Assembly (NCBI GenBank): GCA_963663765.2
Contig: CAXXUA010000005.1
Location: forward strand, 576,001-640,000
Reading direction: 5' to 3'
From: Candidatus Poribacteria bacterium
Lineage (GTDB): Bacteria > Poribacteria > WGA-4E > WGA-3G
Length of the DNA: 64,000 bases
Below are positions 5,363-28,746 of this stretch, piece after piece. The stretch's first letter is position 1, and each line of letters opens with the position of its first letter. Below the pieces are notes generated by a model. That model saw only the letters and a program-made list of their open reading frames with translations, did not search any database and was not told where the DNA came from. The position numbers and the translations under genes were made by a program.

Positions 5363-8350
5363 CTATTCTTCAAGTGTAAATCGATGTACACCACTACCTA
5401 ATGTTCCAACATATAGTGTTTGACCATCAACATCAAAGCAGGCAATTTGATATGGAATCTCTGGTGTAACCTGCTTCCATTTACCTGTTTTTTCTTCTAT
5501 TTGAAATATTAACTTACCAACTTGACCGAATACCTTCGAGTCTTCAACAGCAAACCTATCTACAACGGGAGAAACCCCCTCTGTATCTGTGATAATCTGC
5601 CATTCAATTCCGTTTTTGGATCTCACAACACCCTTATCAGTTGCAACGTAGACGGTATTTCCGGCAATAGTAATATCATTGAATTGAACATCTGTAAATG
5701 GCAGTTTTGAAGTAACATCATTCCAGTTGTCTCCTTCATCAAAGGATAGCATAAGGTTTCCATCTCGTTTTCCAACATAAACAGTCTGACCGGAAACTGC
5801 AATTTTGAAACCGCTCGAATATGGATTAATGTTGTGATTATTATATATATCATAGTCAGTTTCATCTATCAGTTGCGTATTGTACCATTTAGATTCACCC
5901 GGCTTCCATCTTAAGAGTACCTTGCTGAATTCTATATAAACTGTAGAATTCTCTATAACGAAACTTCCAACCAGATATTTTATAGAATCATTTAGACTAT
6001 CTGGTATAATTTCGTTATATATTTCATTGAACTTTTCTGCATTGAAATGCATCGGATCAATCTTTTTTTCATTCTCAAGATTTTTCTTTCCATCTTCATG
6101 AAGAGTTTCAAGAAGTGCTTTGCTCATTTTTTTGCTTAACTCACTATTAAAGTCAGGAACACTAAAAGCAGGTATGTCAGGGACAGAACTCATACGATTT
6201 TCTTCGCTGAATTTGCGATATAAGTGAGGTGCAATGTCTCTTGTTCCTCTAGCATATAAAACACCGTTAGATTCAACTAAACTTATAATTTGTCCTGTTC
6301 TTCCTGCTATAGGCAACCAAGATTCCCCGCCATCTGAAGATGTTACCAGTTGATTACCATTGTTTGCATACAGGGAATCATTGACTGCAACTAAATTCTT
6401 CACATAACTATTTGCCATGCCTGTATTGAATTTTTGCCATGTTTTTCCAGCATTGTTGGTTCTGTACACTCCATCATTTCCCGCAGCATAGATTTGGTTA
6501 TCATTAAGAATTGCAACTGCAGGAGGAGTGTGTGTATTAACTAAACTTTCGGGAAAATTAATAATATTTCCTTTTCCATCATTTATGCAAAAACCGTATT
6601 CCGATTCACAAACCAAAAGATTGTCTTGGTATGAAGTTGTCTTGATCGTTGGAGATGTTTCTGTAACTGAGTTACTTGATACTGAATAACTACCTTTTCT
6701 TGGGTTCTTCATAGTCCTTTTCTCTAATTCAACTTTTTCCCAAGTCTTTCCTAAATTTGTGGAACAAAATATCAATAAGGACGGCTTAGCAGTCGTCATC
6801 ATTTGCATGAATTCTGAAGTTAATCTATTCTTTTCTTTTACACCTTCACCCACATAGAGTTTGTAATCCGCACTTGCCACAGAACGAATACTGTTGACTT
6901 TTCCATCTACAGGTATTAATTGCCATGTATCTGACTTTAGTCTATAGAGTCCAGAATCCGTCCCAATAAATACAGAGTTATCTATCGCGGTGATTGCGCG
7001 AATTTTCTTGTCCTTCAATTCCTTGCTCACAACATTCCATGTTTTTCCACTATCTTTGGATTGATATACACTTTTTTCCAATGCTAAATAAAGTGCTTTG
7101 TCAGTTAAAGCCATACCTGCAAACTTTCCTTCTGGTCGTGCACCTAATGAAATCCATGTCTTACCTTTGTCAATAGATGTAAATATTTCTTTGTATGATA
7201 CCACATAAAAGGTATCCTCACGTTCTATCATTTGCAACGCACTCTTAAAAGGCAGGTTAGAACTGATTAAATCCCATCTTTGTTCATCATTAGACAGTTT
7301 GTAGAGTGCCAAATCAGTTCCTGCATATAGCTCACCTTGTGTTGAATTGAAAAGTGTTCTTACAGGACCCCCTTCTGGTCCTTTTGTTTGAACCCAATCA
7401 CCTTTTATTCTTTGTGCTTCGTCTTCACTGGATTGTGCTGCAAATAGTGTCGTGTCTGAATTCTGATCAATACCGTTACCCTGTCCTATTTTAGTTAAGT
7501 TTCCACTTTGTGCTTGGACTGTCGGTTTTTCCGGATTGTCTATGACAAGTTGAGCTTCAGTAATTTCAATCGTCGGTGCAGTTTGTGCATTCAAACTATA
7601 GGGTTCTTGAAAATGAAACAAGTTTTGAGCACCAATACCAATCAGCAACAGGACGAAAATTGCAGATGCTGCAGAAATTGCTATGGGTAATAATGGCTTA
7701 GTTGTTGATGGAACAATTGGTTTTAGTTCGGTAATTTTCTGCATGATGTTTTCTGTGAGTTGTGTAGGCAGGTGGAAACTGCTCAAGTTTTCTTTAATCA
7801 TGGATTCCTCCTTCTTTAATCTATTGCGTGCGCGGTGTAGTCTACTCCGAACAGTATTTGGAGCTACACCTAAAAATTTACCAATATCTTCACATGTCAT
7901 TTCAGCAATGTAATAAAGATTTATTACCGTGCGTTCACTCTCTTTTAATTGACTGAGCAACTTCTGTACGATTGCACGTCGTTTATTGTTTACTGCATCT
8001 TCGCGTTGTTGTGTCATATATTCTGAGTAGTACACCTCCTCTAATTCAACTGGATCAGTATCTTCTAACGACCGTAGATTTAGCCTTTTCTTACGAAACC
8101 AGTTTTTACACTTTCTATCAGCGATAACATAAAGCCAACCCGCAAAGCGATTGTAGTGCTTGAGTGTCTCCAGCTTTTGATATGCTGTTAGGAAGGTATC
8201 CTGCGTAATTTCTTGCGCAACATGGAAATCACCAATTTTCTGCCAAGCTAATGCATGTATCTGTTTCTGGTATTTTTCCACAAGTGCAGCAAAAGCTTTA
8301 TCATTACCATCTATGGTTTGTTGAATCAAGTCAGCATCATTGCTTTTCAT
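5363..8350 (-). CDS. ECF sigma-70 factor fused via a TM helix to a large BNR/Asp-box beta-propeller domain
   Basis: Sigma2 (AFAALVEKY...AQEITQDTFL...FAGWLY) and sigma4 (TVRSRLHRARNRL); hydrophobic segment near aa 225-245; repeated SxDxGxTW motifs. Confidence 0.9.
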   Translation of the reverse strand: MKSNDADLIQQTIDGNDKAFAALVEKYQKQIHALAWQKIGDFHVAQEITQDTFLTAYQKLETLKHYNRFAGWLYVIADRKCKNWFRKKRLNLRSLEDTDPVELEEVYYSEYMTQQREDAVNNKRRAIVQKLLSQLKESERTVINLYYIAEMTCEDIGKFLGVAPNTVRSRLHRARNRLKKEESMIKENLSSFHLPTQLTENIMQKITELKPIVPSTTKPLLPIAISAASAIFVLLLIGIGAQNLFHFQEPYSLNAQTAPTIEITEAQLVIDNPEKPTVQAQSGNLTKIGQGNGIDQNSDTTLFAAQSSEDEAQRIKGDWVQTKGPEGGPVRTLFNSTQGELYAGTDLALYKLSNDEQRWDLISSNLPFKSALQMIEREDTFYVVSYKEIFTSIDKGKTWISLGARPEGKFAGMALTDKALYLALEKSVYQSKDSGKTWNVVSKELKDKKIRAITAIDNSVFIGTDSGLYRLKSDTWQLIPVDGKVNSIRSVASADYKLYVGEGVKEKNRLTSEFMQMMTTAKPSLLIFCSTNLGKTWEKVELEKRTMKNPRKGSYSVSSNSVTETSPTIKTTSYQDNLLVCESEYGFCINDGKGNIINFPESLVNTHTPPAVAILNDNQIYAAGNDGVYRTNNAGKTWQKFNTGMANSYVKNLVAVNDSLYANNGNQLVTSSDGGESWLPIAGRTGQIISLVESNGVLYARGTRDIAPHLYRKFSEENRMSSVPDIPAFSVPDFNSELSKKMSKALLETLHEDGKKNLENEKKIDPMHFNAEKFNEIYNEIIPDSLNDSIKYLVGSFVIENSTVYIEFSKVLLRWKPGESKWYNTQLIDETDYDIYNNHNINPYSSGFKIAVSGQTVYVGKRDGNLMLSFDEGDNWNDVTSKLPFTDVQFNDITIAGNTVYVATDKGVVRSKNGIEWQIITDTEGVSPVVDRFAVEDSKVFGQVGKLIFQIEEKTGKWKQVTPEIPYQIACFDVDGQTLYVGTLGSGVHRFTLEE

Positions 8351-8384
8351 TGCAAACCTCAAAACAAATTAGTCTTTAAATATA

Positions 8385-8413
8385 TAGACACAATTCTGGA
8401 GAAGATAATTGCA
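8385..8413 (-). promoter_or_regulatory. Putative ECF-type promoter TGCAAT-N17-TGTCTA
   Basis: Lies upstream of the ECF gene; similar motifs precede the other ECF loci in the window. Confidence 0.5.
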
Positions 8414-8532
8414 TAATTTGCAAAATAATGTTTTTGTGGGAGAGTGGGAGGAATTTGGAAATAAAATTCATTTTGCAAAATGATAGTTCAATTGGAATAG
8501 TATTTTTCATATTTAGATGTAATGAAAACAGA

Positions 8533-8569
8533 AAAACCCCTATGCCTTACAGCACAAGACATAGGGGTT
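8533..8569 (-). terminator. Rho-independent terminator after the sulfatase-like gene
   Basis: Inverted repeat AAACCCCTATG...CATAGGGGTTT followed by a T-run on the minus strand. Confidence 0.65.
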
Positions 8570-8594
8570 TGAATTATGAAAGGCCATTTAGCTG

Positions 8595-10043: not shown

Positions 10044-10202
10044 GAATTATAATTCACCTATTAACAATTAATATTACTTATTTCTACCATGCTAAGATAA
10101 CTCCTCCTTTAAGTCAAATTAAATAAGAAAAGGCAGATACCTATAAAGATACCTGCCTGTCCACTATTCTGACGGTAAAGAGATTATTGCCACGGATGTC
10201 TT

Positions 10203-10433
10203 CTATAACGATTGCATACATCCACAACCACTTTCATTACAGAGATCACAAACAATGTATAAATTTCTCGCTGTGATAAGTGTCAAGGGAACCGACACCA
10301 CTTTGTGTTTTCCTCCGATCGCGTGTATTAAATGTTTCCCTGTTGCCTTCGCATGTGCGTTTGGGTTGCTACCCAACTCATAATCCCACCCCTCAACATC
10401 TATTTCAACAAGTTCATATCTTGATATAGTCAT
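10203..10433 (-). CDS. Hypothetical protein, possibly a fragment
   Basis: ORF only; may be the frameshifted continuation of 10493-10813. Confidence 0.3.
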   Translation of the reverse strand: MTISRYELVEIDVEGWDYELGSNPNAHAKATGKHLIHAIGGKHKVVSVPLTLITARNLYIVCDLCNESGCGCMQSL

Positions 10434-10492
10434 CAGCCTATTGCCAAAGATTCAATTGCTGACCATTTTCTTCATAAACAATCTGTCGTGCG

Positions 10493-10813
10493 TTACTTTC
10501 TAAGGCACCTCGTTCGCGTATATACGCGGGGAAATGGAATAGGTGTTTTCGTAGTAACCCAATCATACCACTCCGTGACAACATCATCCGTATAACCGAC
10601 CGAAGTATGTGTCATCGCAAACAAAGGGAAATCAGTATCAGTACCACTCTTCGACGAATCTGTAAAAGCTGGTGGATTATAGCGTGATCCGTATGTAGTA
10701 TTCAACGTTAGTTCCATATAAGATAAATACCTATTTAGGCAAAAACCATAATAAGCTGTTGCGCCCAACAACACGACTATTAAAATTGATAATATAAAAA
10801 ATCTAACTTTCAT
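10493..10813 (-). CDS. Hypothetical secreted or membrane-anchored protein
   Basis: GGAGG RBS upstream; N-terminal hydrophobic helix. Confidence 0.55.
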   Translation of the reverse strand: MKVRFFILSILIVVLLGATAYYGFCLNRYLSYMELTLNTTYGSRYNPPAFTDSSKSGTDTDFPLFAMTHTSVGYTDDVVTEWYDWVTTKTPIPFPRVYTRTRCLRK

Positions 10814-10825
10814 TTTTTAAGCCTC

Positions 10826-11007: not shown

Positions 11008-11135
11008 CAATACCTACGCCAATAATAGACATTCTGCCAGATTGTGCATGTAGTTGTAGCACATTCTGCCAGATTGTGCGGGTAGTTGTAGCACATTCTG
11101 CCAGATTGTGCATATAAATTATTCTGACAGATTGC
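11008..11135. mobile_element. Truncated copy of the MITE at 33068-33602, with about 2.6 copies of the 32-bp unit
   Basis: CAATACCTACGCCAATAATAG-ACATTCTGCCAGATTGTGC... has the same left end and 3' flank as the 33068 element. Confidence 0.8.
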
Positions 11136-11140
11136 TGATA

Positions 11141-11622: not shown

Positions 11623-11641
11623 AAGAAAGTTCCGTTTTGGT

Positions 11642-12063: not shown

Positions 12064-12097
12064 TGTTTATCCTCTTTCTTGGAATATTCTGTTTTTC

Positions 12098-13024: not shown

Positions 13025-13027
13025 CGC

Positions 13028-15030: not shown

Positions 15031-17340
15031 TCAATCTATTATAATCTGGTTTACATCCCACAGAAGCACTGTACCATCTTTACAACCTGTCGCGATTAGT
15101 GTGCCATCTGACGAAAAAGCAAAACCGTAGACCCAATCAGAATGGTTTAATATCGCTTTGATTGTTCCACTATTAACATCCCACAAACGTACTGAGTTAT
15201 TGTACCCTCCAGCAATAGTCGCGCTATCTGGAGAATAAATATATGGGTATTTCCACCTAGTATGACCAGTATGTGCGTATTCTCGTCCTCGGGTTTTTCC
15301 TGTACTTAAGGAGACTATTTGGCTGCCATTGCGAGCATTCCAAACATTTAGAATTTCTGCATTACCATTCAAACAAGCTACAGTTGTTGCATCTGGTGAA
15401 TATGTAAAGTGATTAATAAAATAGTCTTGCTCTCCTTCAAGAGTGACCTTGCGTTCTCTTGTGAGAACGTCCCATAAATCCACTGTATTATCCTCATTTT
15501 TAAGCGCAACCATGATGTTTATTGGTGTGTAAACAAAGATAGAAATATCGTCTAAATCATGAAATACTCTTATGGGCAGTCCAGTTGTTGCATGCCATAG
15601 ACGCACCGTTTTATCATACGACGATCCACTAACGATAATGGTACCATCTGCAGAATATGCTATTGATCTAACCTGTTCTTTATGCCCTATTAGTGAATTC
15701 TTGAGTTTTCCTGTAGATGTATCCCATGACCGTAACGTTTTATCGGCACAGGCAGCAGTAATAGTAGTACCATCTGGAGAAAATACTACTGAACTAACCC
15801 AACAATTTGGTTTTATTATAACTTTGCGATCACCGGATGCAGTATCCCACAAAAATAACGAATAGTCATAGCCCCAACTGGCAAGTGTTGTACCATCGGG
15901 AGAATATAATAATGAATGAATCCGCTTTGTATGTCCTGTAAATGTAATTTTAAGGTCACCGTTAGCTGCATCCCATAAGATTACTTTCTTGTCTGATGTA
16001 CCAGTTGCTATAGTCTTATTATCCGGTGAATATGCAAGGCAATAAATAGCATCAATGTGTTCAACTATATGTCTAATCAGATTTCCAGTATTGGCATCCC
16101 ATAAGCGAACAGAATTGTCCTTAGTCCAACTGGTAAGTGTATTACTTTCTGATGAATACAAAAAAGAAACTATATCATCAGCATGTTTGAATGAAGCAAT
16201 CTGTCGTGCTGTTGACGTGTCCCAGAGATAGATTGTTCTGTCACTACAGTGACTAACGATTATTGTACCCTCCTTAGAATACATAAAGGACAAAATTTGA
16301 CTAGAATGATTCAGTGTACTTTTAAGTTCTCTGGAGGAAGAATCCCATAGACGTAAAGTCTTATCCCTACTTGCACTTGCGATAGTTTTACCATTTAGTG
16401 AATACAAGATTTCAGTAATCCAATCTGTATATTCTATTGAAGTTGTCTTGAGTTCACCCGATGCTGTATCCCAAAATTTCACAGTTTGATCAGTACTACC
16501 TGTAGCAATAATAGTACTATCAGGTGAATACGTTACAGAAGTTATCTGGTCCTTTTGTTCCAATGTCTTTTCAAGGTTTCCAGTTCCAGTGTCCCATAAA
16601 TACACCTTCTTATCAATGCTCAAAGTAGCAAGTGCGGAACTATCAGGTGAATATATTAAAGAAAAAATGTTGTATTTATGAGCAAGTGTAGCTATGAGTT
16701 TTCCACTGTTTACATCAATTAATTGTGCAGTTGCTGAGCGACTACTCTTACCTATAAGTGTGGTATTATCTGGTGAAAAAACTATAAAGTCAACCACGCG
16801 TTTTTTTGAAATAATTCTTGCTCTAAGTTTACCTGTCGTTGTATCCCATAAACGCAAAACACCAAATTTGGTACGACTTTCTGCTTGTATATAGTATCCT
16901 CCAGTAGCAACTGTTTTTCCATCGGATGAGAATACTACAATAATGTCTTGATACTTTCCATCAAAATCCATGTTTAGTGTGGTATATAGTTTTCCTGTGG
17001 TAGCATTCCACATTCTGACCTTACCATCACTACAAACACATGCAATATAATTTCCATCAGGTGTAAATTCTATTGATTTGACATCGTGTTTATCATCTGG
17101 AAAAAGGTTAACCTCTTTACCGTTCTTTGTATCGTAAATCCAAATACCAATTGAACTAGTTACTGCTAAGTGCAAACCATCTGGTGAATATTTAATATCA
17201 GAGATTGAACCTTTACCCATACGCATTTTAGCTCCTTTGGGTAAACTGAAATACTTATAATCCGATGAAAATACTGATGGTAAAACAACAAGCATTAGGA
17301 ATATCGTCAGACAGAGTTTAAAATATAGTATTGCTTTCAT
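15031..17340 (-). CDS. Secreted WD40-repeat protein
   Basis: Signal peptide; many xYSPDGxTIATGSxDxTVxLWD repeats. Confidence 0.92.
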   Translation of the reverse strand: MKAILYFKLCLTIFLMLVVLPSVFSSDYKYFSLPKGAKMRMGKGSISDIKYSPDGLHLAVTSSIGIWIYDTKNGKEVNLFPDDKHDVKSIEFTPDGNYIACVCSDGKVRMWNATTGKLYTTLNMDFDGKYQDIIVVFSSDGKTVATGGYYIQAESRTKFGVLRLWDTTTGKLRARIISKKRVVDFIVFSPDNTTLIGKSSRSATAQLIDVNSGKLIATLAHKYNIFSLIYSPDSSALATLSIDKKVYLWDTGTGNLEKTLEQKDQITSVTYSPDSTIIATGSTDQTVKFWDTASGELKTTSIEYTDWITEILYSLNGKTIASASRDKTLRLWDSSSRELKSTLNHSSQILSFMYSKEGTIIVSHCSDRTIYLWDTSTARQIASFKHADDIVSFLYSSESNTLTSWTKDNSVRLWDANTGNLIRHIVEHIDAIYCLAYSPDNKTIATGTSDKKVILWDAANGDLKITFTGHTKRIHSLLYSPDGTTLASWGYDYSLFLWDTASGDRKVIIKPNCWVSSVVFSPDGTTITAACADKTLRSWDTSTGKLKNSLIGHKEQVRSIAYSADGTIIVSGSSYDKTVRLWHATTGLPIRVFHDLDDISIFVYTPINIMVALKNEDNTVDLWDVLTRERKVTLEGEQDYFINHFTYSPDATTVACLNGNAEILNVWNARNGSQIVSLSTGKTRGREYAHTGHTRWKYPYIYSPDSATIAGGYNNSVRLWDVNSGTIKAILNHSDWVYGFAFSSDGTLIATGCKDGTVLLWDVNQIIID

Positions 17341-17782
17341 GGACAAATCCCGTTATAGGTGGAGTTTGAAGCACTTATTGAAATACTTAAATCATTTTCT
17401 TTTATAGTATACCATTAAAATGACAATTAGTATGGTTATATTCTTGGACCAAACATTGAACATGTCCAAAGCGCACTCACAAAGCGCGCCTACCGTGTGT
17501 TTGTATGGTGTGTGTAAATATTTTGGCATTAACCGTATTTTCAAGGGTAGGAATAACCCGCCAATTGCCATATATATTTGGGTGTTGATTCAAGGTCGTT
17601 CCTACAAGATCTCAGTAGCTAATGAGAAATAACAATTTCTTTTGTGAAATAAAATTTCATAGGTAGTTATTTAGCACAAGTCGTTGAAATGGTATTATTA
17701 TATTTCAAAGTATACACATTTTTCCAAAATTATTTGCATTTTCAAATAGAAAGCGTTATTATTTTTAAGCAAGGAGGAAACT

Positions 17783-18580
17783 ATGGTAAAACTTACGCAA
17801 GATGACATAGAGTTTTTCAAGAATGAAGGTTATTTAGTCAAACGCGACGTCCTAAACCCAGAACTAATGGAACGCGCACGAACAAGATTATGGGATGGAG
17901 CACCAGAGGGAAGACTTCGAGAGGACCCAGACACATGGGTTGGTCCCTTCAAAAAGGAAGAAGAGAACGAAGAAAACTCCAATCGGAGAAAAGGATTTAG
18001 ATGGAACTTCCGTGAACCCGGTGGGGAAGATTGGATGATAAAACTACTCGCTACCGATCCAAATGTCTGGCACATGGCAGAACAGTTCTTAGGTGAAGAA
18101 AACCTTGTGGAACCTAATCGCGTACGTGGAATCTATTGCACACTCCCTTATGGAAATGTCACAAAGAAATCAAGCGGATGTCATGTAGATGCACATCCAT
18201 TCCATCTTGGAGTTGTCGGTTATATTGATGACGTCCCCAAAGAAGGTGGCGGTTTTACAGTGTGGCCCGGAAGCCATAAGATCTTCTATTACGACTATAA
18301 ATCGCAGTATAAGAACGAACCGACACCACAATATGACATTGATCGTGAACGGCTTAGTAGAGAACTGGGTGTTGAATGTTATGGTAATGCAGGAGATATA
18401 GTCTTCTGGCATCATCGCATAGGACATGCAGCGGGACATAACTACTCCAGGCAGATACGGCAAGCCGTCATATACAGCTATAAAAAAACTGAATTGTCGG
18501 AAACACAAGAAGATCCACCCAACAAAGACATGTGGAGAGATTGGCCTGGTATAAAAGCGTTAGAGAAGACAGATACATAG
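17783..18580 (+). CDS. Phytanoyl-CoA dioxygenase (PhyH) family Fe(II)/2OG oxygenase
   Basis: LTQDDIEFFKNEGYLV, HVD, GGFTVWPGSH, AGDIVFWH, distal H and R. Confidence 0.9.
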   Translation: MVKLTQDDIEFFKNEGYLVKRDVLNPELMERARTRLWDGAPEGRLREDPDTWVGPFKKEEENEENSNRRKGFRWNFREPGGEDWMIKLLATDPNVWHMAEQFLGEENLVEPNRVRGIYCTLPYGNVTKKSSGCHVDAHPFHLGVVGYIDDVPKEGGGFTVWPGSHKIFYYDYKSQYKNEPTPQYDIDRERLSRELGVECYGNAGDIVFWHHRIGHAAGHNYSRQIRQAVIYSYKKTELSETQEDPPNKDMWRDWPGIKALEKTDT

Positions 18581-18595
18581 TCAAAAGTATTTATC

Positions 18596-18651
18596 AACTA
18601 ACATACAAGGTAGGCGTGGATCAGAACCCACACCTACCTTGTATGTTAGTT
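18596..18651. terminator. Long hairpin between convergent genes (bidirectional terminator); paralog at ~19875-19928
   Basis: AACTAACATACAAGGTAGG...CCTACCTTGTATGTTAGTT. Confidence 0.65.
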
Positions 18652-18686
18652 GATAAATACAAAGATGAAACCAGAATGTGTTAATG

Positions 18687-18845
18687 CTAATTCCGTCCCA
18701 GAACCTTCAGAAACTCAGGATCTTCTTTTACTTCTGAAAATTCAGGTGTTACAAGGAAGGCAGGATAGTATCTTGCTTCATTCCAATAATTTCCTATGTA
18801 GTTTGAAGCAAGTTTCAAATTGTGCAGAGTCTTCTCTCTATCCTT
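18687..18845 (-). pseudogene. 3' remnant of a duplicated ECF-TPR gene
   Basis: KDREKTLHNLKLASNYIGNYWNEARYYPAFL...FLKVLG matches the C-terminus of 19963-21657. Confidence 0.9.
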
Positions 18846-18980: not shown

Positions 18981-19056
18981 TGTCAGTTAATTCCCTTCAA
19001 ATTTTATTTGCATTTTCAGATAGAAAGCGTTATTATTTTTAAGCAAGGAGGAAACT

Positions 19057-19854
19057 ATGGTAGAACTTACGCAAGATGACATTGAGTTTTTCAAGAATGA
19101 AGGTTATTTAGTCAAACGCAACGTCCTAAACTCAGAACTAATGGAACGCGCACGAACAAGATTATGGGATGGAGCACCAGAGGGAAGACTTCGAGAGGAC
19201 CCAGACACATGGGTTGGTCCCTTCAAAAAGGAAGAAGAGAACGAAGAAAACTCCAATCGGAGAAAAGGATTCAGATGGAACTTCCGTGAACCCGGTGGGG
19301 AAGATTGGATGATAAAACTACTCGCTACCGATCCAAATGTCTGGCACATGGCAGAACAGTTCTTAGGTGAAGGAAGCCTTGTGGAACCAAAACGCATCCG
19401 TGGAATCTATTGCACACTCCCCTATGGAGATGTCATAAAGAAATCAAGCGGATGTCATGTAGATGCACATCCATTCCATCTTGGAGTTGTCGGTTATATT
19501 GATGACGTCCCAAAAGAAGGTGGTGGTTTTACAGTGTGGCCCGGAAGCCATAAAATCTTCTATTACGATTACAAATCGCAGTATAAGAACGAACCGACAC
19601 CACAATATGACATTGATCGTGAACGACTCAGTAGAGAACCAGGAGTTGAATGCAATGGCAATGCAGGAGATATAGTCTTCTGGCATCATCGCATCGGACA
19701 TACAGCAGGACATAACTACTCCAGACAGATACGACAAGCTGTCCTGTACGACTTTAGAAAAACCGAATTGTCAGAAACACAAGAAGAACCACCTAACGAA
19801 GATATGTGGAGAGATTGGCCGGGAATAAAAGCTTTGGAGAAGTCAGATACTTAG
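19057..19854 (+). CDS. Phytanoyl-CoA dioxygenase (PhyH) family protein, duplicate copy
   Basis: Near-identical to 17783-18580; HVD...H facial triad. Confidence 0.9.
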   Translation: MVELTQDDIEFFKNEGYLVKRNVLNSELMERARTRLWDGAPEGRLREDPDTWVGPFKKEEENEENSNRRKGFRWNFREPGGEDWMIKLLATDPNVWHMAEQFLGEGSLVEPKRIRGIYCTLPYGDVIKKSSGCHVDAHPFHLGVVGYIDDVPKEGGGFTVWPGSHKIFYYDYKSQYKNEPTPQYDIDRERLSREPGVECNGNAGDIVFWHHRIGHTAGHNYSRQIRQAVLYDFRKTELSETQEEPPNEDMWRDWPGIKALEKSDT

Positions 19855-19962
19855 TCATTAGTATTTATACATAAACATTAAAAGGAAGGCGCGGATCAGA
19901 ACCCACACCTACCTTTGTTATAATGTTGATAAATACACAGATGAAACCAGAATGTGTTAATG

Positions 19963-21657
19963 CTAATTCTGTCCCAAAACCTTCAGAAACTCAGGATCTT
20001 CCTTTACTTCTGAAAATTCAGGTGTTTCAAGGAAGGCAGGATAGTATCTTGCTTCATTCCAATAATTTCCGATGTAGTTTGAAGCAAGTTTCAAATTGTG
20101 CAGAGTCTTCTCTCGATCTTTCTCAGTTACCCAGATTGCGACAGCGAGCATGAAATACGCCCAATCGTTCTTATTTTGCAGATCAAGAGAGGTTTTTAAG
20201 AAACGTTTTGCTTCCTCATACTTCTTTGACCAGACGAGGCAACACCCGAAGTCATGAGCAGCCCAGATAAGATCACCCGTATTGACAGGATAACCAGCTC
20301 CATGTTTTTCGACTTCCAATTCAATAAACTTACTGAGGTCCGAAAACACTGAATCAAAAAGTACCCAGTCTTCCTGTTTACTGTAAATCAAGACTTTATT
20401 CGTTCTAATAGCCAACCAGAATCGGAAATAATGTTTCCAATCCTGATCTTTGTTAGCATGTTCTAACTTATCTAAGCCAAGAAGTGCATCCTCAAAAAGA
20501 TCGTTGTTTCGTAATACCTCTGCTCCAATTTGCAGAAAATCACAGCGGGAGTAGTCACTCACATCTTGGTTGACTAAACGTTCGGATGCCTCATCATGAA
20601 GTTGAATCCATTCTTCAATTCGACCTTCATCTTTCCAACATCCGGCAGCGTTCAGATTAGACATCACCTCTAATACATGCTTATCTGACATGTGCTGGCA
20701 TGTCCAACGGTAAAGCCGTGTATGCTCTTCAATAGTTTCTCGGTTTCTTTCCAAACAAGCAAGACTATTCACTAAGTTCTGATGTGCCCAGAAACGTTCG
20801 TCATCACTTGGTGCTTTGTCTTGATAATTTCGGAGTAGTGCAATCCGACTTTCCATTCCGATTTTTCCATAATGCGCGTAAATATCATCCACAGCAAAAT
20901 GCACCAACTCTTTTGTGATTTTTCCCTTGAGTGCCTCTTCTACCTCAACATAAGCTTCCTTAAGGATTTCCTCTCCTGAGAGAATATCATTCTGCGTAAT
21001 GGGATAAGATTCTACCTTTTCCATATACGCATTAAATTTGCTGCGAATGTCTTCCAATTTAACAGACATAATATCTCCTTTGTAACCACTCCAAATCTCA
21101 CGAATTGTATATTCCTCCTTCAGTAGACGTTTACGGGCGCGATGGAGCCGACTCTTGACCGTATTCGTTGATACACCCAAAAAATCGCTAATATCTGCAC
21201 ACGTCATGTCTTCAAGATAGTGTAACCTGATAGTGGTACGTTCACCCACTGGTAACTTTTGAAGAAGGTGTTTAACAACTTCGCGTTGTTGTTCAAACGC
21301 AATTTCCTTTTGCTGTTTTTCGTGGTACTTTGTATAAGCCAGTTCCTCTAATTCCCCAGCAGGCATGGTATCTAAGGACGTCATTGGAATCCGCTTTTTT
21401 TCATACCAAGCGTAACAATAACGAGCTGCTATCACATAAAGCCACCCAACAAAACTATTCTGATTCTTCAATGTGTGAAGTTTCTGGTGGACTCTCAAGA
21501 ATATATCTTGCGTGACTTCTTCAGCGATGTGGTAGTCACCGATTTTCCGCCATACGAAAGTGTGAACGGGCTTTTGGTATTTTTGCACAAGTACGTTGAA
21601 AGCAGATTGGTCACCTGCCAATGTTCGTTGAATCAATTGTGCGTCATCGTTTTTCAT
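19963..21657 (-). CDS. ECF sigma-70 factor fused to a helical/TPR-like C-terminal domain
   Basis: Sigma2 (AFNVLVQKY...AEEVTQDIFL...FVGWLY), sigma4 (TVKSRLHRARKRL); C-terminus helical with TPR-like repeats. Confidence 0.88.
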   Translation of the reverse strand: MKNDDAQLIQRTLAGDQSAFNVLVQKYQKPVHTFVWRKIGDYHIAEEVTQDIFLRVHQKLHTLKNQNSFVGWLYVIAARYCYAWYEKKRIPMTSLDTMPAGELEELAYTKYHEKQQKEIAFEQQREVVKHLLQKLPVGERTTIRLHYLEDMTCADISDFLGVSTNTVKSRLHRARKRLLKEEYTIREIWSGYKGDIMSVKLEDIRSKFNAYMEKVESYPITQNDILSGEEILKEAYVEVEEALKGKITKELVHFAVDDIYAHYGKIGMESRIALLRNYQDKAPSDDERFWAHQNLVNSLACLERNRETIEEHTRLYRWTCQHMSDKHVLEVMSNLNAAGCWKDEGRIEEWIQLHDEASERLVNQDVSDYSRCDFLQIGAEVLRNNDLFEDALLGLDKLEHANKDQDWKHYFRFWLAIRTNKVLIYSKQEDWVLFDSVFSDLSKFIELEVEKHGAGYPVNTGDLIWAAHDFGCCLVWSKKYEEAKRFLKTSLDLQNKNDWAYFMLAVAIWVTEKDREKTLHNLKLASNYIGNYWNEARYYPAFLETPEFSEVKEDPEFLKVLGQN

Positions 21658-21724: not shown

Positions 21725-21759
21725 CAAAGTGTGGAATTTTGGAGATGAGACATATATAA

Positions 21760-22003: not shown

Positions 22004-23706
22004 CTATTTTCCAAAAATATGCAGAAACTCTGGATCGTCCTTTATATCTGAAAACTCGTGTGTGCTACGAAAAGATGAATAGTAACTATCCATATAATTG
22101 TAGGCTTCTACTATATAGTAGTCCTGAGCAATTTTTAAATGATGCAAAGTTTTCTCGCGATCCTTCTTTGATGCCCAGATACTCACAGCGAGCATGAAGT
22201 GTCCATAATGATTGTTATTCCCCAAATCACTCGCAACCTGCAGGAATCGTGTTGCATCACTATACTTACCTAACCACACAAGGACACACCCTATATCATG
22301 AGTAAACCATATTAGATCACTAAGATCTACAGGTTGACCTGCTTCCATTTTTTCAACTCTACTTCCATATAGTAAGTAACTTCCGTAATAATTTCAATGT
22401 AACGTTCCCACTCCTTCTTTCTGGCATACAGTAGAAGTCGATTTGTTCTCACAGCCAACCAAAATCGAAAAAAATGTTTCCAATCTTGTTTAGTGTTCAC
22501 GCGTTCCAATTTCTCTATCTCTTGAAGTGCCTCATCAGTCCTACCGTTTGCACGTAAGACTTCTGCTCCCATTTGCAAAAAATCGCAGCGACTGTAGTAA
22601 CTCACTTCAGATTTATCTAAACGTTCAGATGCTTCAGTATATAGTTGGATCCAGTCATCAATTCTATTTTCAGCTGCCCAACATCCAGCACTATTTAGAT
22701 TAGAAATAATTTGCAAGACATCCTTATCAGGTAGGTTTTGGTGGCATGCCCACTTGTAAAGTCGAGTGTGTTCCTCAACAGCTTCTCGGTTCTTCCCGAG
22801 AATAGAGAGACTGATGACTAAATTCTCATGTGCCCAAAAACGTTCTGTATCATCTGGTGCATCATCCAAATATTTACGGAGTAAAGTCACACGTTTTTCT
22901 ATACCGAGTCTACCCATGTGTGGATACAAATTATCAACCACAAGATGTACTAATTCAGGTGTAATTTCGCCCTTAAGCGTATCTTCAATCTCTTTGGATG
23001 CATCCTTAAGAATACTCTCTCTTGATGTTGGATCAGATTTTACTTGTTCCATGAATGAATCGAACTTGCTGCGAAGTTGCTCTAATTGACTCATTATATT
23101 CTCCTTTAAATCATGGGGTATTTGTATTTGACCAAAGAATTCTTGATCTAACAGTTCCTGATCAGTTTGTAAACGTTTTCGTGCACGTTGGAGACGGCTG
23201 GTAATTGTATTTACCGACACTCCCATGAATTCACCAATCTCTTTTGTTGACATTTCGTCGAGATAGTAGTGTGTTACCACCGCGCGTTCTTCCTCTGGTA
23301 GTTTATCCAGTAGCTTTTGCACAAGCTCCTGGCAATACTCGTTTCTATCAGTTACCCACTGTTCCGCAATGTGATGAGTATAAGAGGCTTCCCCAATTTC
23401 TTCTGGATGAGTGGTCTCCAGAGATTGCATCACAGGCTTTTGCTTTCGTATCCAATCAATGCAAAGGTGTTTTGCGATGACATGAATCCATCCTGCAAAT
23501 TGGTCATGATCTTTGAGTGTAGACAATTTTTTATATGCCTTAAGGAATGTGTCTTGCATGATCTCTTCCGCATAGTGAAAGTCGTGTAACTTTCTCCATG
23601 CAAGCGCGTGAATGCTCTTTTGGTACCTTTCTACCAAGACACCAAACGCAGCCTCGTCCCCAGATAAGATTTTGCGTATCAATTTAACATCGTCATCTCT
23701 TTCCAC
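22004..23706 (-). pseudogene. ECF sigma + TPR-like fusion (paralog of 19963-21657), split by a 1-nt frameshift near 22350
   Basis: ORFs 22327-23706 and 22004-22348 together align end to end with the paralog; the shift lies at or near the A6 run in GAGTTGAAAAAATGG. Confidence 0.8.
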
Positions 23707-23718
23707 AAGATTTTCCCA

Positions 23719-26040
23719 TTATTTCAGATATTCGTCGAACCAGTTTAGCACTCGTTCCCAATAATCGGCAAGTTTTTCATTTGACCAGAAGCCATGCCAG
23801 TGGTCTGCCTCCTTGTATTTCAATAACACAACTTCTTTCTCAAGATTTGCAAGTCCAATGAACATTTCCTGTGCTTGTTCAAAGGGTATGAAATCTTGAT
23901 CTCCGTGAATCAAAAGCAAAGGAGTTTCAATCTTATCCAGATGGAACACTGGTGAACCATCAATATAACGTTGTGGAAATTCCCATAAGGAACCACCCAT
24001 TCCAGCTTGTCCCGTCTCGTGCCAACCGGTACCAAGTCCACTATATAGGTATCCACTGATTAAGTTGCCTACAGATGCAGAAGCGACTGCTGCTTTAAAT
24101 CGCGTTGTTTGTGTGATAAGCACATTTACAGTATATCCCCCGAAACTATGACCGATGACACCCAACCGTTCTGCATCTATCTTTTTAGTCGCAATTGCAG
24201 CGTCAATTCCTGGAAGAATGACACTGGAAAACTGCTTGAACGGTTCAATCTTCGGGACGGGGAAATCGGGCAAGAAAAGCGCATAGCCTCGTGAGACAAA
24301 CATACCCGGATGTGCCCCCCCTATGTTCTCCCCGAAAGCAAATCTGTTGAAGGCATGTGAATGGGTGCCTCCTGCATAAGTGTTTACGATCATCGGGACA
24401 GGATTTTTCTCAGATGCCTCAGATGGTAGGACGAGGATCCCTTTAATTCTTTGTCCATCATCAAGGGTCCACTCAATAAGTTCGCTTGTGCCCAAGTCAA
24501 TTGTCTTTAGGTGTGGATTAGTGTCAGTAATTTGCCGCGGTGATTCAAAATTAGCATCACTCATCCAGATATTCTGCGGTTCTTGACTATTTTCCATAAC
24601 ATAAACAAATTCTCCAGTTTTCTCTGCAACATCTTGATGAAAGCGGCCTGCGTGAACATTCCGATGTTCGTCTTTGTACAAAAGTGTTATTGTGTCATCC
24701 CTGAGGTTCAGGCGATAGAAACCGTTATCATAAGTGTTTATTATGATGGCGTTATCTACCGTCAAGGGTGTATATCCTTCGCTTGGGTAAAAAACATCAT
24801 GAGCAGAAAACTCAAATTTTTCTGTCAAGTTTCGTATAGCGTCACCGTTCAGAGGTACTTTCCATATTTCACCTTTCGCGATGCATAGGAGTGCCTCGCT
24901 TTCTGCTGTCCAGAGTGCGGGTTTATATAATCGTCCAAGGTCAACGTCAAGGTCTTCTGTGAGATTGCGGACAATACCTGTTTCTAATTCAACAACGTAT
25001 GCATTCCCTGATGCTAATTTACCCCCCTCACCGCCTGTTGTCCATGCAACGTGTTTTGAGTCTGGAGACCAATTGACAGTAATTCCGTACGCAAGACGTA
25101 TCTTCCGAACAAGAGGTTCAATTTCCGTGGTGGAAGACTCACTTAACTCCTTTGGTAGCGGTAAGATGTAGAGATCAAAGATACGTTGTTGCACATCAGG
25201 TCTTTCATTTCCCAAGTTAACCGTAACAGCAACATGTTCCCCGTTCGGAGCAATATCAAAACTTCTGATCTCATACTCCTTCATCAACGAGAATGTTTTC
25301 CCGGTTTTAGTGTCAGCTATAACAAGGTTTTTGTCCGCTCTTCCTCGTTCTTTTCTTTTAGGTTGTTCGTTTTCCTGTGTTGATTCATCTTCTCGTTTTT
25401 GAAATCGTTTTTTGGGCCAGTCCCAAATTTCAACAAAGGAAGGTTTAGGCGAAATTTCTGATTTGTCTTCGACAGATTCCTCTTTGTTGGGGGCCTCTAT
25501 AGCAGAAATGGATTTGAAAAGAACAAACCGTCCATCTGGGGTCCATTTCGGCACCTCGAAGCCAAAGAACGTCCGAACGGTTGCCGATGTAAACTCCTGC
25601 ATGTCGTCAGATTCTCGGTTCCAGACATATAGATAAGGCTTACCCATGCGATCCGAGAAAAAGGCAAGACACGTTCCATCAGGAGACCATCTCGGTGCCC
25701 AACTTGAACCCCAATTCTGAGTGAGATTGCGATGTTCACCCGTTCGTGTATTCGTTACCCAAACCGTTCCGTACGCCATTTCTATCATCACACCTGTTTT
25801 AGAATATGCTGAGTTTCCACCGCCACCTTCATACTGCTCACGGTTCTGCGTGTTGTAGGCAATCCAGTTTCCATCGGAGGTAATATCAATAGGGACTCTG
25901 AAAATAAACTCGTTAAATTTTAGCAAATCTTCAAGTGTTAAAGGATTCAGATCTTCTCCTTCGCTAATGGTTGTTGATGTAGATACCACAAAACATAAGA
26001 GTAAACCATAGCAAATGTTAACAATGTTTTTGAAATTCAT
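23719..26040 (-). CDS. Secreted S9 family peptidase (dipeptidyl aminopeptidase/acylaminoacyl peptidase)
   Basis: PD40-like WSPDG repeats; GHSFGG nucleophile; HGDQD and EADH catalytic residues. Confidence 0.92.
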   Translation of the reverse strand: MNFKNIVNICYGLLLCFVVSTSTTISEGEDLNPLTLEDLLKFNEFIFRVPIDITSDGNWIAYNTQNREQYEGGGGNSAYSKTGVMIEMAYGTVWVTNTRTGEHRNLTQNWGSSWAPRWSPDGTCLAFFSDRMGKPYLYVWNRESDDMQEFTSATVRTFFGFEVPKWTPDGRFVLFKSISAIEAPNKEESVEDKSEISPKPSFVEIWDWPKKRFQKREDESTQENEQPKRKERGRADKNLVIADTKTGKTFSLMKEYEIRSFDIAPNGEHVAVTVNLGNERPDVQQRIFDLYILPLPKELSESSTTEIEPLVRKIRLAYGITVNWSPDSKHVAWTTGGEGGKLASGNAYVVELETGIVRNLTEDLDVDLGRLYKPALWTAESEALLCIAKGEIWKVPLNGDAIRNLTEKFEFSAHDVFYPSEGYTPLTVDNAIIINTYDNGFYRLNLRDDTITLLYKDEHRNVHAGRFHQDVAEKTGEFVYVMENSQEPQNIWMSDANFESPRQITDTNPHLKTIDLGTSELIEWTLDDGQRIKGILVLPSEASEKNPVPMIVNTYAGGTHSHAFNRFAFGENIGGAHPGMFVSRGYALFLPDFPVPKIEPFKQFSSVILPGIDAAIATKKIDAERLGVIGHSFGGYTVNVLITQTTRFKAAVASASVGNLISGYLYSGLGTGWHETGQAGMGGSLWEFPQRYIDGSPVFHLDKIETPLLLIHGDQDFIPFEQAQEMFIGLANLEKEVVLLKYKEADHWHGFWSNEKLADYWERVLNWFDEYLK

Positions 26041-26096
26041 TCTATTCTTCTCCTTTACGTAAAATTATCAATACGGTTCACACTCTCTAATATTTA

Positions 26097-26125
26097 AAGA
26101 CGAAGTTTTGATCAAAAAACGTGCA
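26097..26125 (-). promoter_or_regulatory. Putative ECF-type promoter TGCACG-N17-CGTCTT for the S9 peptidase-ECF operon
   Basis: Resembles the TGnAAC-N17-CGTC type of ECF promoter. Confidence 0.5.
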
Positions 26126-26355
26126 ATATAGTTAAAAAGTGAAAAAAAGTTATTTATGGTAGAATTTTTGTGCGGAGAAATGATAAACCCGATTTCATAA
26201 TCTCAGGGTGAGAATAATTGAGATGTGTCTCAACGTATTTAATGGTGAAGCGGATGGTTCTCAATGGTATAAGTTTGTGCCTGATATAAGTGATCATGTA
26301 ATGCGCAAACTATTCCATAAATTATCTGTGATTTAATCACTTAGTTTTTTCTGTT

Positions 26356-26477
26356 CAGGACTTACGCACCTAACGGTAGGCGCGCTTTGAAAGCGCGCTG
26401 GAAACCAAAAAAATGCTGAAAATTACACCATTTTCGTCATAATTCTTCATCAAATCATGAAAACTGCGTAAGTCCTG
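26356..26477. mobile_element. MITE family A, 5-bp duplication CTGTT
   Basis: CAGGACTTACGCA...TGCGTAAGTCCTG, 122 bp. Confidence 0.9.
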
Positions 26478-26515
26478 CTGTTTATAGTTATTTCATAGAT
26501 GTTTCGTAGATTTTA

Positions 26516-26637
26516 CAGGACTTACGCACCCAACGGTAGGCGTGCTTTGTAAGCGCGCCGGAAACCTAAAATATGCTGAAAATTACATCGTTTTCGGCTT
26601 AAGTCTTGATTGGATCATGAAAACTGCGTAAGTCCTG
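26516..26637. mobile_element. MITE family A, 5-bp duplication TTTTA
   Basis: CAGGACTTACGCA...TGCGTAAGTCCTG, 122 bp. Confidence 0.9.
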
Positions 26638-26638
26638 T

Positions 26639-26767
26639 TTTATAATTGACTTGACATTTTGAATAGTAGGAGGTAACTCCGATTTCCGACTATCAAAAGG
26701 TTTGGTCATGATTCTGAGATCGCTCCTACAGAAGAACTGACAATATATTCTCTATAATTCACGATAA
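26639..26767. mobile_element. MITE family G carrying REP GTAGGAGG(G/T)AACTCCGATT(T/C)CCGAC
   Basis: Same left end (TTATAATTGACTTGACATTTTGA) as 27386-27515. Confidence 0.7.
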
Positions 26768-26778
26768 TTCTGTAATTT

Positions 26779-27390
26779 ATAGTAGAATCCGAAAATATAT
26801 TTACACTCCGAGATAGGATCTCACATAACACGTTTGTAGGTGTTGGGTAACCCAACCCCATAAGCGTCAATTTAAGGATTTTCACCTCTTGTGGGAGGGG
26901 TTTTCAACTTAAGGATTTTCACCTCTTGTAGGCTTACAATTACCCATAAGTTTTTGGGTATAGTCCGTTAAGTCTTTTGTGGGTGCCTATTGCTTAAAAA
27001 CACCTGAAAACTGACCAATATTTTAGATGTAGCATACCGTTATAGTCCTTTTAGACAAGTTTCACAAGATTTTTAGTTCTTATGACCAGTTTTCTGTAAT
27101 CTATCGGGGTTAGAAACCCCTCCTACAGCAGCATGTCGTGCCTTTGTACCTCCAATTTGACTTATGGGTAAAAGTAAGCTTGTGGGAGGGGTTTTCAACT
27201 TAAGGATTTTCACCTCTTGTGGGAGGGTTTTTCAACCCCGATGTTTTAGCGCATTTCCGCTCAAATCGAGGTTTAAAAACCCTCCCACAAGAGAAATGAA
27301 AACAATATTTTCTTAAATTGACGCCTATGGGGCGGGGAGACCCCGCCCCTACGTCCAGTAACCAAAACTTTACACACCCTAGATTTTATA
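26779..27390. mobile_element. Triple-nested MITE cluster: outer REPIN element > family H (26861-27327) > inner element (~26930-27181)
   Basis: H: TAAGCGTCAATTTAAG...CTTAAATTGACGCCTA. Inner: GCTTACAATTACCCATAAG...CTTATGGGTAAAAGTAAGC. Outer REP halves at ~26836 and ~27328. Confidence 0.75.
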
Positions 27391-27515
27391 ATTGACTTGA
27401 CATTTTGAGTTGTAGGAGGGAACTCCGATTTCCGACTGTCAAAGGGTTTGATAGTCGGGAATCGGAGTTCCCTCCTACAACTCAGGATGTAGATTTAATT
27501 GTATAATCCACCATA
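27386..27515. mobile_element. MITE family G with REPIN
   Basis: GTAGGAGGGAACTCCGATTTCCGAC...GTCGGGAATCGGAGTTCCCTCCTAC inverted pair. Confidence 0.75.
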
Positions 27516-27525
27516 AACGCGAAAA

Positions 27526-28746
27526 CTAAGTGTCTCTGAACATAGTTTTGGAATGAAATTCAGAGATGCTTTCAACACCATGGAGCAACATTTCATCGCT
27601 TAGACCGAACACCTCAGCTACTTTCAATGGACGATCTACCGTGTCAAGAAGCCTTTGGTTCGGCATAACAAGAACAGAATCAGCATTTTCGCGAAGTTCC
27701 TGCAGTCCTTGTTCTGCGCGTTCGGCGCGCCGTTCCCCTTCAAACATAAACGGACAAGTGACAATGCCAACAGTTAGAGCCCCTTGTTCTCGCGCAAGGG
27801 ATGCAATCAGAGGTGCAGCACCTGTTCCTGTCCCACCACCCATGCCAGCGGTAATGAAGACCATGTCCGCGTCCGCAACAATGTTATGGAGCGTTTCTCT
27901 GTCTTCCTCAGCGGCTTTTTTACCTATCTCTGGATTTGCGCCACAACCAAGTCCTTGCGTGGTGTTCGCACCGATCTGAACCGGTGTTGCGTCAGCGCAT
28001 GTATCCAATGCTTGTTGATCTGTGTTTACAACGTAGAATTCAATATCTGTCAAACCGGCACCTATCATTCGTTTGACAGCGTTCCCTCCCGCTCCACCGA
28101 CGCCAATAACTTTAATTTTCGTTCGGGTGCGTTTGGATTTATCTTGTTTAGATGACATAACTTTACCTCTTTCAGGTTCAACGTTGAACTCCTTACGTAG
28201 GAGTTCACGTGCCTGTCTTAATTTGGTTTTGATTGTTCCTATCGCTAATTCGAGTTCAGCGTGGATCTCTTTGACACTCCACAATTCCAGATAGTATAAC
28301 TCCGCGACGCGGCGCACTTTTTCTGGAAGATGATGCACTGCTTCATTTACTGCCTCACGAAGTTCTGTTTCTTGGAAACGTGTAACTGCGTTCTGATCAA
28401 TTTGATCGGTTAAGTAAGCATCACTGCACAGAATTTCACCCTTTGAATGGTGGCGAGAAACGTAGTACCTCTTGCAGGCGTTGTAAGCAATGCGGTGCAG
28501 CCATCCACCAAAACTCTCAAGGTTTTGCAGTCCGCTGATGTTTTCCCAAACAGAACGCCAGACATCCATGAGAATTTCTTCAGCGTCGCGGCGTTGTCTC
28601 GAATTTGTGATAATCACTTTCCAGATGCGTGGACTATAACGCAACATCAGTTCTGTCAATGCTGATTCATCTCCGATTTGTGTAAACTGGATGAGTTCTT
28701 CATCTGTCAGATCTGTGTACGTTGATAGATTGTCTCGCATAAACAT
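27526..28746 (-). CDS. ECF sigma-70 factor fused to the N-terminal GTPase domain of FtsZ
   Basis: Sigma2/4 in aa ~10-185. Then KIKVIGVGGAGGNAV, NTD, GLGCGANPEIG, AGMGGGTGTG, PFMFEG, PNQRL. Ends before the T7 loop. Confidence 0.92.
   Translation of the reverse strand: MFMRDNLSTYTDLTDEELIQFTQIGDESALTELMLRYSPRIWKVIITNSRQRRDAEEILMDVWRSVWENISGLQNLESFGGWLHRIAYNACKRYYVSRHHSKGEILCSDAYLTDQIDQNAVTRFQETELREAVNEAVHHLPEKVRRVAELYYLELWSVKEIHAELELAIGTIKTKLRQARELLRKEFNVEPERGKVMSSKQDKSKRTRTKIKVIGVGGAGGNAVKRMIGAGLTDIEFYVVNTDQQALDTCADATPVQIGANTTQGLGCGANPEIGKKAAEEDRETLHNIVADADMVFITAGMGGGTGTGAAPLIASLAREQGALTVGIVTCPFMFEGERRAERAEQGLQELRENADSVLVMPNQRLLDTVDRPLKVAEVFGLSDEMLLHGVESISEFHSKTMFRDT

Follow-up and report, generated by a model that had tools for sequence, protein, structure and literature searches.

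Conserved Shine-Dalgarno motifs and start codons behind the sigma domain of Poribacteria ECF fusions as putative internal translation-initiation sites

A 64-kb stretch of a Candidatus Poribacteria contig (CAXXUA010000005.1, positions 576,001 to 640,000; hereafter the window, numbered from its first letter) carries four genes in which a sigma factor of the extracytoplasmic function (ECF) type is fused to a C-terminal domain and one unfused ECF gene; no further ECF gene was found in the window. Closely behind sigma region 4 (sigma4), each fusion gene contains a Shine-Dalgarno (SD) motif followed by an ATG in the sigma reading frame. Comparison with Poribacteria relatives suggests, with a probability of about 0.65, that these four motifs are genuine, selected internal translation-initiation sites and that each gene would give rise to both the fusion and a free C-terminal protein.

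ECF fusions of the window and their junction motifs

The fusion genes and the unfused gene pair occupy the following positions.

5363-8350, minus strand: propeller fusion (995 aa), an ECF sigma, a linker, a hydrophobic (transmembrane-like) segment and a BNR/sortilin-type beta-propeller
19963-21657, minus strand: TPR fusion 1 (564 aa), an ECF sigma and a cytosolic 368-aa TPR-like helical domain
22327-23706, minus strand: TPR fusion 2, a paralog of TPR fusion 1 (459 aa as an open reading frame (ORF), shortened by a frameshift)
27526-28746, minus strand: FtsZ fusion (406 aa), an ECF sigma and the N-terminal GTPase half of FtsZ (Pfam Tubulin match at residues 210-370)
31765-32976, minus strand: unfused ECF sigma gene (32449-32976) and zf-HC2 anti-sigma gene (31765-32445), assigned with Pfam and NCBIfam

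All four fusion proteins match Pfam Sigma70_r2 and Sigma70_r4_2 or Sigma70_r4 and give no region 3 match, the composition of an ECF (group 4) sigma-70 factor, and they score 70.7-103.1 bits with the NCBIfam sigma70-ECF model TIGR02937 (cut-off, 42.9). The C-terminal extensions run in frame for ~210-812 aa after region 4 and are conserved in relatives. The propeller fusion matches Sigma70_r2, r4_2, Sortilin-Vps10, DUF6242 and BNR, with a hydrophobic stretch at about residues 222-240 (placed by eye from the translation) preceding the BNR/sortilin domains. The four fusions give no match to zf-HC2 or another anti-sigma Pfam domain, whereas the unfused neighbour at 31765-32445 does match zf-HC2. 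A short, unclassified anti-sigma-like stretch could still lie between the sigma domain and the membrane segment of the propeller fusion. A 32-nt tandem unit, repeated in 10.6 copies with a 97% match and giving no Rfam match, lies immediately before the unfused ECF gene on its upstream side (33089-33427); a stretch related to this array lies at 11029-11133.

The two TPR fusions were named for a domain that neither protein matches above threshold in Pfam. Distant free-standing homologues of this domain show weak Pfam TPR matches, two of them just over the cut-off, and an Atlas structure search returned TPR proteins only (TM score of 0.55-0.68 by query). A TPR-like fold of the 368-aa domain is therefore only a lead, and the name given in the first-pass annotation is kept in that sense. 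The reading frame of TPR fusion 2 is broken near 22330-22348, and the remainder of its domain is found in an ORF at 22004-22348 (minus strand) that matches P0098, a full-length ortholog, at residues 453-565 with 69% identity; the gene is either a pseudogene or affected by an assembly error. Two PhyH dioxygenase genes are contained in a tandem duplication (17722-18845 and 18996-20121; 96-97% identity), and the boundary of its copies overlaps TPR fusion 1 at the gene's 3' end.

The FtsZ fusion does not contain a complete FtsZ. The FtsZ part aligns to solved FtsZ chains only to approximately chain residue 192-200, in helix H7, and scores 269.2 bits with TIGR00065 (cut-off, 295.2) over model positions 8-205 of 353. 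It lacks the T7 loop and the C-terminal domain and retains the nucleotide-binding motif GGGTGTG. Because the FtsZ part is short and the following 1.4 kb are poor in ORFs, a pseudogene was considered; it was rejected, since the ECF-FtsZ fusion recurs in at least 120 clusters of relatives (72-87% identity, 399-443 aa) with the same length and the same conserved C-terminal end. The ORF-poor region (26040-27526) contains dispersed direct and palindromic repeats, which recur in intergenic regions near 1128, 29771, 55433 and 63890. A literature search retrieved no report of an FtsZ fused to an ECF sigma factor.

The internal SD and ATG sites of the four fusions are arranged as follows.

7799-7816, minus strand: propeller fusion, AAGAAGGAGG-AATCC-ATG (ATG 7801-7799), 5-nt spacer, residue 184, at +5 after the sigma4 motif
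21067-21081, minus strand: TPR fusion 1, AAAGGAG-ATATT-ATG (ATG 21069-21067), 5-nt spacer, residue 197
23092-23107, minus strand: TPR fusion 2, AAAGGAG-AATATA-ATG (ATG 23094-23092), 6-nt spacer, residue 205
28156-28173, minus strand: FtsZ fusion, SD-like GAAAGAGGT-AAAGTT-ATG (ATG 28158-28156), 6-nt spacer, residue 197

Strings and positions are as the first-pass annotation had described them, and all four ATGs are in frame with the sigma ORF, at residues 184, 197, 205 and 197 and 4-25 residues past the Pfam Sigma70_r4/r4_2 match. SD strength was scored as the duplex energy with the anti-SD sequence, and an energy of -7 kcal/mol or lower was taken as strong. A strong SD precedes 10 (3.2%) of the 313 internal in-frame ATGs from the 40 window ORFs of at least 150 aa. 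The junction sites rank 1 (propeller, -12.2), 4 (TPR fusion 1, -8.9), 5 (TPR fusion 2, -8.8) and 10 (FtsZ, -7.1) in this set, and ranks 2 and 3 are G-runs. The junction zones hold six ATGs, four of which fall into the top 10 (hypergeometric P=7.8e-6). Because the two TPR fusions are paralogous, the window provides about three independent cases rather than four. The most-upstream ORF starts reach -7 or lower in 15 of 40 ORFs by manual count, which indicates that the organism uses SD motifs. A scan of the four genes for sigma-70 promoters found no minus-strand promoter-like site in the sigma-coding parts, with counts not above those of shuffled sequences, which lends no support to an internal promoter.

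Within the window, the internal SD of every fusion exceeds in strength the SD at that gene's own start (-12.2 versus -6.3 in the propeller fusion, -8.9 versus -5.6 in TPR fusion 1, -8.8 versus -4.2 in TPR fusion 2 and -7.1 versus -0.9 in the FtsZ fusion). Across relatives, the same holds for only 51 of 83 genes in a comparison that used a deliberately generous choice of own start, and an excess of the free domain, as initially proposed, is therefore not established. The unfused pair displays the layout that had been described for it: a GGAG at 32458-32455 inside the 3' end of the sigma gene serves as the SD of the anti-sigma gene and is followed by the TAA stop of the sigma gene (32451-32449) and the ATG at 32445.

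Conservation of the junction among relatives

DNA of relatives was obtained by a genome scan (74 Poribacteria loci, 1.29 Mb in total), and junctions were located with a regular expression for the end of sigma4. This expression finds 110 junctions, 107 in the loci and three in the window. It does not capture the sigma of the FtsZ clade, which was handled separately. At 109 of the 110 junctions, the reading frame runs on for more than 80 codons, which argues that the read-through protein is selected and excludes an assembly artefact or a recent accident as the source of the fused frames. An in-frame start codon with an SD of -7 or lower lies within 40 codons after sigma region 4 in 84 of the 109 fused ECF genes. 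The motif is strongly enriched at the junction: a strong SD precedes 75%, 94% and 38% of the in-frame ATGs at 0-10, 10-20 and 20-30 codons past sigma4, respectively, compared with 0-4.5% of the other downstream in-frame ATGs in the same ORFs and 21% in the bin that contains the genes' own starts.

The fused architectures are widespread. The TPR-like family comprises at least 120 fused protein clusters at 54-87% identity, and the propeller family comprises at least 120 at 43-85% identity. TPR fusions 1 and 2 are 49% identical to each other. Judged from this spread and divergence, all four fusions are old, conserved architectures. Degraded copies are also present in the relatives: a TPR2-type copy in locus L027 has two stop codons directly after sigma4, and of two degraded FtsZ fusions (L004, 14697-15889; L023, 6318-6952), one is frameshifted and one is a fragment.

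Nucleotide-level conservation is most evident in the TPR family, for which a codon analysis was performed on 49 genes (40 left at ≤90% identity). The junction reads AAA GGA GAT (ATH) ATH ATG in the TPR1 clade and AAG GAG AAY ATH ATG in the TPR2 clade, and the AAGGAG hexamer is preserved in two codon phases that specify different residues (KGD versus KEN). In the TPR2 clade, Glu is encoded by GAG in 32 of 32 cases and Lys by AAG in 30 of 30 (family usage of 0.33 and 0.36, respectively). In the TPR1 clade, Gly is encoded by GGA in 17 of 17 cases (family usage of 0.28) and Lys by AAA in 15 of 15. Where the TPR2-clade Lys is replaced, the Arg codon is AGG and the Met codon is ATG, both of which preserve GGAG. 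The adjacent Asn and Ile codons vary synonymously. Control columns rarely behave in this way; GAG is fixed in one of 30 conserved Glu columns and GGA in one of eight Gly columns, in both cases the junction column, and AAG is fixed in two of 14 conserved Lys columns, one of which is the junction column. The start codon itself is ATG in 45 of the 49 genes, GTG in three (one clade) and displaced by one codon in one; across 122 aligned TPR-family proteins, only Val substitutes for the internal Met (three sequences). These codon columns indicate that selection acts on the nucleotides at the junction, and conservation in orthologs, the lack of which had been named as a refutation, is found at the nucleotide level. 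A sliding-window scan of synonymous conservation over the TPR codon alignment was not discriminating: codons are already highly identical at baseline (0.47-0.79), the codon phase differs between the two clades, and windows just upstream of the SD rank ~5th-12th of 547 (ratio 1.22-1.25).

In the FtsZ clade, the internal Met is present in 120 of 121 aligned proteins, and an SD of -7 or lower precedes it in seven of the nine ORFs for which DNA is available. The residues before the Met differ (ERGR, ERGT, IREG and KKGR), and the purine-rich SD stays. Arg codons before the Met are AGR in nine of 11 cases versus 24% elsewhere in the same ORFs. An SD 5-10 nt before an in-frame start codon is therefore kept beyond the need of the peptide, partially so in the propeller and FtsZ clades.

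In the remaining fusions, the position of the site changes. Among 60 non-TPR fusions, 24 have an SD-ATG at +5 only, 12 at +22 to +26 only, none at both and 24 at neither. Sites at +5 read AAG GAG GAA NNN ATG, the form of the propeller fusion that is also present in paralogs, and sites at about +24 read ATG GAG GAY RTY ATG or ACG GAG GAT ATT ATG. Both positions are common to families with different extensions, and many different codon arrangements occur at the junction sites of relatives. Lys-Glu is written AAG GAG in 22 of 25 genes with Met at +5 versus two of 14 without it (Fisher, 8.5e-6, with no phylogenetic correction), and a strong SD is found at +5 in 24 of 30 genes with an ATG there versus 14 of 79 without. 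On a tree of the sigma domain from which the junction was excluded, the four position states need at least 14 changes, and presence or absence needs at least eight. Local mRNA folding at the sites is weak, with a mean free energy of -6.95 kcal/mol (n=83) versus -10.9 at 1306 control ATGs and -9.8 at GC-matched ones, for which P values are descriptive only because the samples are related.

A second SD-like motif, GAG GAA and often AAG GAG GAA, is seen in the TPR1 clade (loci L002-L026 and window 21100-21125, minus strand), followed by Thr at the place where paralogs have Met. Outside the fusion genes, the WD40 gene of the window (ORF 15031-17346, minus strand) probably starts at ATG 17226 or 17220 (SD AAAGGAG, -8.1/-7.8) and not at the most upstream TTG. 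Two diverged tandem copies (50329-53011; 86-92%) of a unit that includes a gene of the Uma2 family, itself interrupted by an array of 21-nt repeats, are located within a run of NADH dehydrogenase (nuo) genes, and a TnpB/IS605 OrfB gene lies at 58394-59584. An Rfam scan of the window gave no matches.

Internal initiation and its alternatives

The motif is present at this position, its nucleotides are conserved and so is the fused frame; ribosomes probably initiate at the junction. One ORF would then produce the full-length sigma-domain fusion and, from the internal Met, a free C-terminal protein. The propeller fusion would yield a free protein that crosses the membrane once, with a short tail in the cytoplasm and a propeller of the BNR/sortilin type; the TPR fusions would yield a cytosolic TPR-like protein and the FtsZ fusion the GTPase half alone. 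These predicted products resemble the natural free-standing form of each domain. A search with the 368-aa domain alone detected many free-standing proteins of 350-390 aa that span the whole TPR-like domain and whose N-termini lie ~0-10 residues from the internal Met. The alignment of full-length FtsZ chains has an offset of about one residue (query 14 to chain 13-15), which places their first residue adjacent to the internal Met. Given the enrichment, the conservation and the free-standing homologues, the proposal of one gene and two proteins is reasonable; the site is not universal, however, and 25 of the 109 fused genes lack it.

Several observations weigh against internal initiation, and some of them fit other explanations. 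The case for ribosome entry is built on comparative sequence from uncultured organisms. Codons resampled for the same junction peptides still average -4.6 to -4.7 at +0 to +22, compared with a background of approximately -1.7, and the codon-shuffled control suggested by the first-pass annotation gives, with the peptides fixed and in the window only, P values of 0.027, 0.107, 0.055 and 0.322 (Fisher combined, 0.011). Part of the SD signal thus stems from peptides rich in Lys, Glu, Gly and Arg, and the window alone cannot separate a constraint on the peptide from one on the nucleotides; it is the orthologs that supply the strong evidence. The Met at about +24 belongs to an L-T-E-N-I-M peptide motif that is kept without an SD in many membrane-type fusions and is therefore constrained as a residue too. 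These points would suit a linker that needs Lys, Glu, Gly or Arg and a Met for protein reasons, such as the end of the sigma4 helix or the L-x-E-N-I-M motif, with no initiation at all. A mere by-product of the peptide is nevertheless improbable, as it does not explain why fixation of minority codons (32/32, 30/30 and 17/17) is seen at the junction and in almost no other conserved column, why one hexamer is maintained in two codon phases with different residues, or why the purine motif stays in the FtsZ clade where the residues vary.

Further points concern fusions without the site. Besides the 25 of 109 genes that lost it or never had it, distant fused TPR homologues have no internal Met, the Met at +5 is present in 75 of 120 propeller clusters and absent in 45, and a divergent FtsZ fusion in locus L002 has no SD site. 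Only three phylogenetically independent contrasts are available for Met and SD at +5; two are concordant and none is opposite, which is not significant. Patchy loss would be expected of a functionless remnant, that is, an SD and ATG left from a former downstream gene after its fusion to the sigma gene and not yet decayed. The free-standing homologues that start at the same position and the fusion with a downstream gene reported as a route to extensions in the available part of PMC7671368 accord with such a remnant, which is nonetheless somewhat harder to credit than the peptide explanation: the fusions are old (49% identity between TPR fusions 1 and 2, down to 54% within the family), the linker has diverged around a motif that has not, and a single site is generally retained even though its position has shifted several times. 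The TPR1 clade additionally retains GAG GAA directly after sigma4 (Glu is GAG in 15 of 16 cases) with Thr (ACG/ACA) at +5 and no start codon. This GAG GAA could be the relic of a +5 start (ACG differs from ATG by one base), a standby site or the outcome of another codon constraint. It lends some support to a role of the SD-like motif in elongation, whereby a pause or standby at the domain boundary, where the motifs always lie, would let the sigma domain fold or time membrane insertion. Pausing of bacterial ribosomes by SD-like sequences is disputed. A pausing role is given little credence here, because a spacer of 5-8 nt before an in-frame ATG or GTG is conserved, the strong SD at +5 mostly accompanies an ATG there and the +5 and ~+24 positions are mutually exclusive. 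It is scarcely conceivable that the sigma and partner genes are truly separate and that stops or frameshifts were lost in metagenome assembly or annotation. TPR fusion 2 does carry a frameshift further downstream, but the 109 open, in-frame junctions come from 74 loci and many independent assemblies, including closed chromosomes, and hundreds of protein clusters have the fused length.

The fusions were initially proposed to derive from sigma-partner operons that lost the stop codon and kept the second start. An operon-fusion origin is reasonable, and C-terminal extensions that arise when a gene fuses with the one downstream have been described (available parts of PMC7671368 and PMC8999054). 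A separate stop loss in each gene is not needed. A 903-codon ORF in locus L073 (7080-9791, plus strand) joins an FtsZ-clade sigma (55% identity over residues 1-204) to WD40 repeats, and its junction (VEPIRGGVMST, encoded with AGAGGAGGAGTT ATG; -11.9) is close to the VEPxRGxxMS of the FtsZ fusions. This common junction of the FtsZ and WD40 fusions suggests an exchange of domains behind an internal start that was already in place, and new domains may have been added behind such a start.

If internal initiation occurs, the free domain might tune the tethered sigma through competition, be it for the sigma core, the signal or partner proteins, a tentative proposal that falls short of an even chance. 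In the membrane type, the free domain would act as an untethered sensor or an anti-sigma-like protein that competes for the signal, proteases or oligomer partners; a free TPR-like domain would compete in trans, either for the sigma core or for an activating partner; and a free FtsZ half would join the tethered sigma in capping or decorating filaments of FtsZ. A more speculative and rather unlikely extension is that, in a large family of Poribacteria ECF genes, the conserved linker cassette (the sigma4 end, the SD and the start codon) is both a second ribosome entry and an attachment point for domains as varied as a membrane-anchored propeller, a TPR-like domain, WD40 and the FtsZ half. Every gene would then be a two-protein module in which the free sensor sets the threshold and the ratio is tunable through SD strength and position, and the sigma-FtsZ half would link the condition of the division ring to a transcription programme.

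Related systems and implications

The fusions share features with several known systems. Like ECF sigmas with a C-terminal extension, they have a sigma2-sigma4 core, an in-frame C-terminal domain and no adjacent separate anti-sigma gene. In ECF42, the TPR extension is essential for activity according to the available part of PMC8999054; the extension there is ~200 aa, in contrast to the 368 aa of the TPR-like fusions, and the linker of the window fusions differs in carrying a conserved SD and start codon. The propeller fusion may also resemble sigma/anti-sigma hybrids (Pseudomonas putida IutY; ECF48/52/53) in a putative layout of cytosolic sigma, single membrane segment and extracytoplasmic domain. 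IutY is activated by regulated proteolysis, as stated in the accessible parts of PMC5411451 and PMC8999054. Unlike IutY-like or ECF52-like hybrids, the window fusions give no match to zf-HC2 or any other anti-sigma Pfam domain. In the part of the PMC7826278 supplement that was available, ECF128 of Actinobacteria has a transmembrane partner at +1 whose cytoplasmic N-terminus is short, conserved and free of Pfam domains and which carries BNR/sortilin/Ycf48 domains outside. Likened by domain layout, this partner would have the same shape as the predicted free product of the propeller fusion; the arrangement comprises two genes in Actinobacteria and one ORF in Poribacteria.

In-frame internal initiation is known from the large and small subunits of type I-D Cas10d and from alternative starts mapped with retapamulin, as reported in the consulted parts of 10.1101/2020.04.18.045682 and 10.1101/520783. 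The likeness lies in an SD and a start codon inside an ORF and, in the sections available, a C-terminal part that is made on its own and functions together with the full-length protein. Those cases were demonstrated experimentally according to the same sections, whereas the Poribacteria sites are known from comparative sequence and belong to a transcription factor family. The ordinary sigma/anti-sigma operon, exemplified by the unfused pair of the window, has GGAG, 9 nt including TAA and then ATG, and the fusions have the same arrangement without the stop. Unlike such an operon, 109 of 110 relatives have no stop, which points to selection on the read-through product itself.

A literature search retrieved nothing that combines ECF sigmas with internal translation, or internal translation initiation with anti-sigma factors, in this sense, and nothing on Poribacteria sigma factors in this sense. 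In the portions of the ECF literature that were searched, 'internal translation' does not occur; 'start codon' is absent from the available text of PMC7671368, and neither 'start codon' nor 'internal' appears in that of the IutY paper (PMC5411451). PMC7826278 and part of one supplement contain no mention of Poribacteria, FtsZ or tubulin, with no 'internal start' in the main text and no 'start codon' in that part of the supplement. Extended ECF sigmas, sigma/anti-sigma hybrids and in-frame starts inside genes are each known, and their combination was not found in the literature search.

ECF sigmas with fused extensions are currently treated as one-protein signalling devices. If internal initiation holds for most of them in the phylum, models of their regulation would need a second component, with consequences for cis inhibition, partner activation and proteolytic release. 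It would also offer a concrete picture of how sigma/partner operons become fusions without loss of the partner, and a transcription-factor family would join the few known conserved in-frame dual-coding cases in bacteria.

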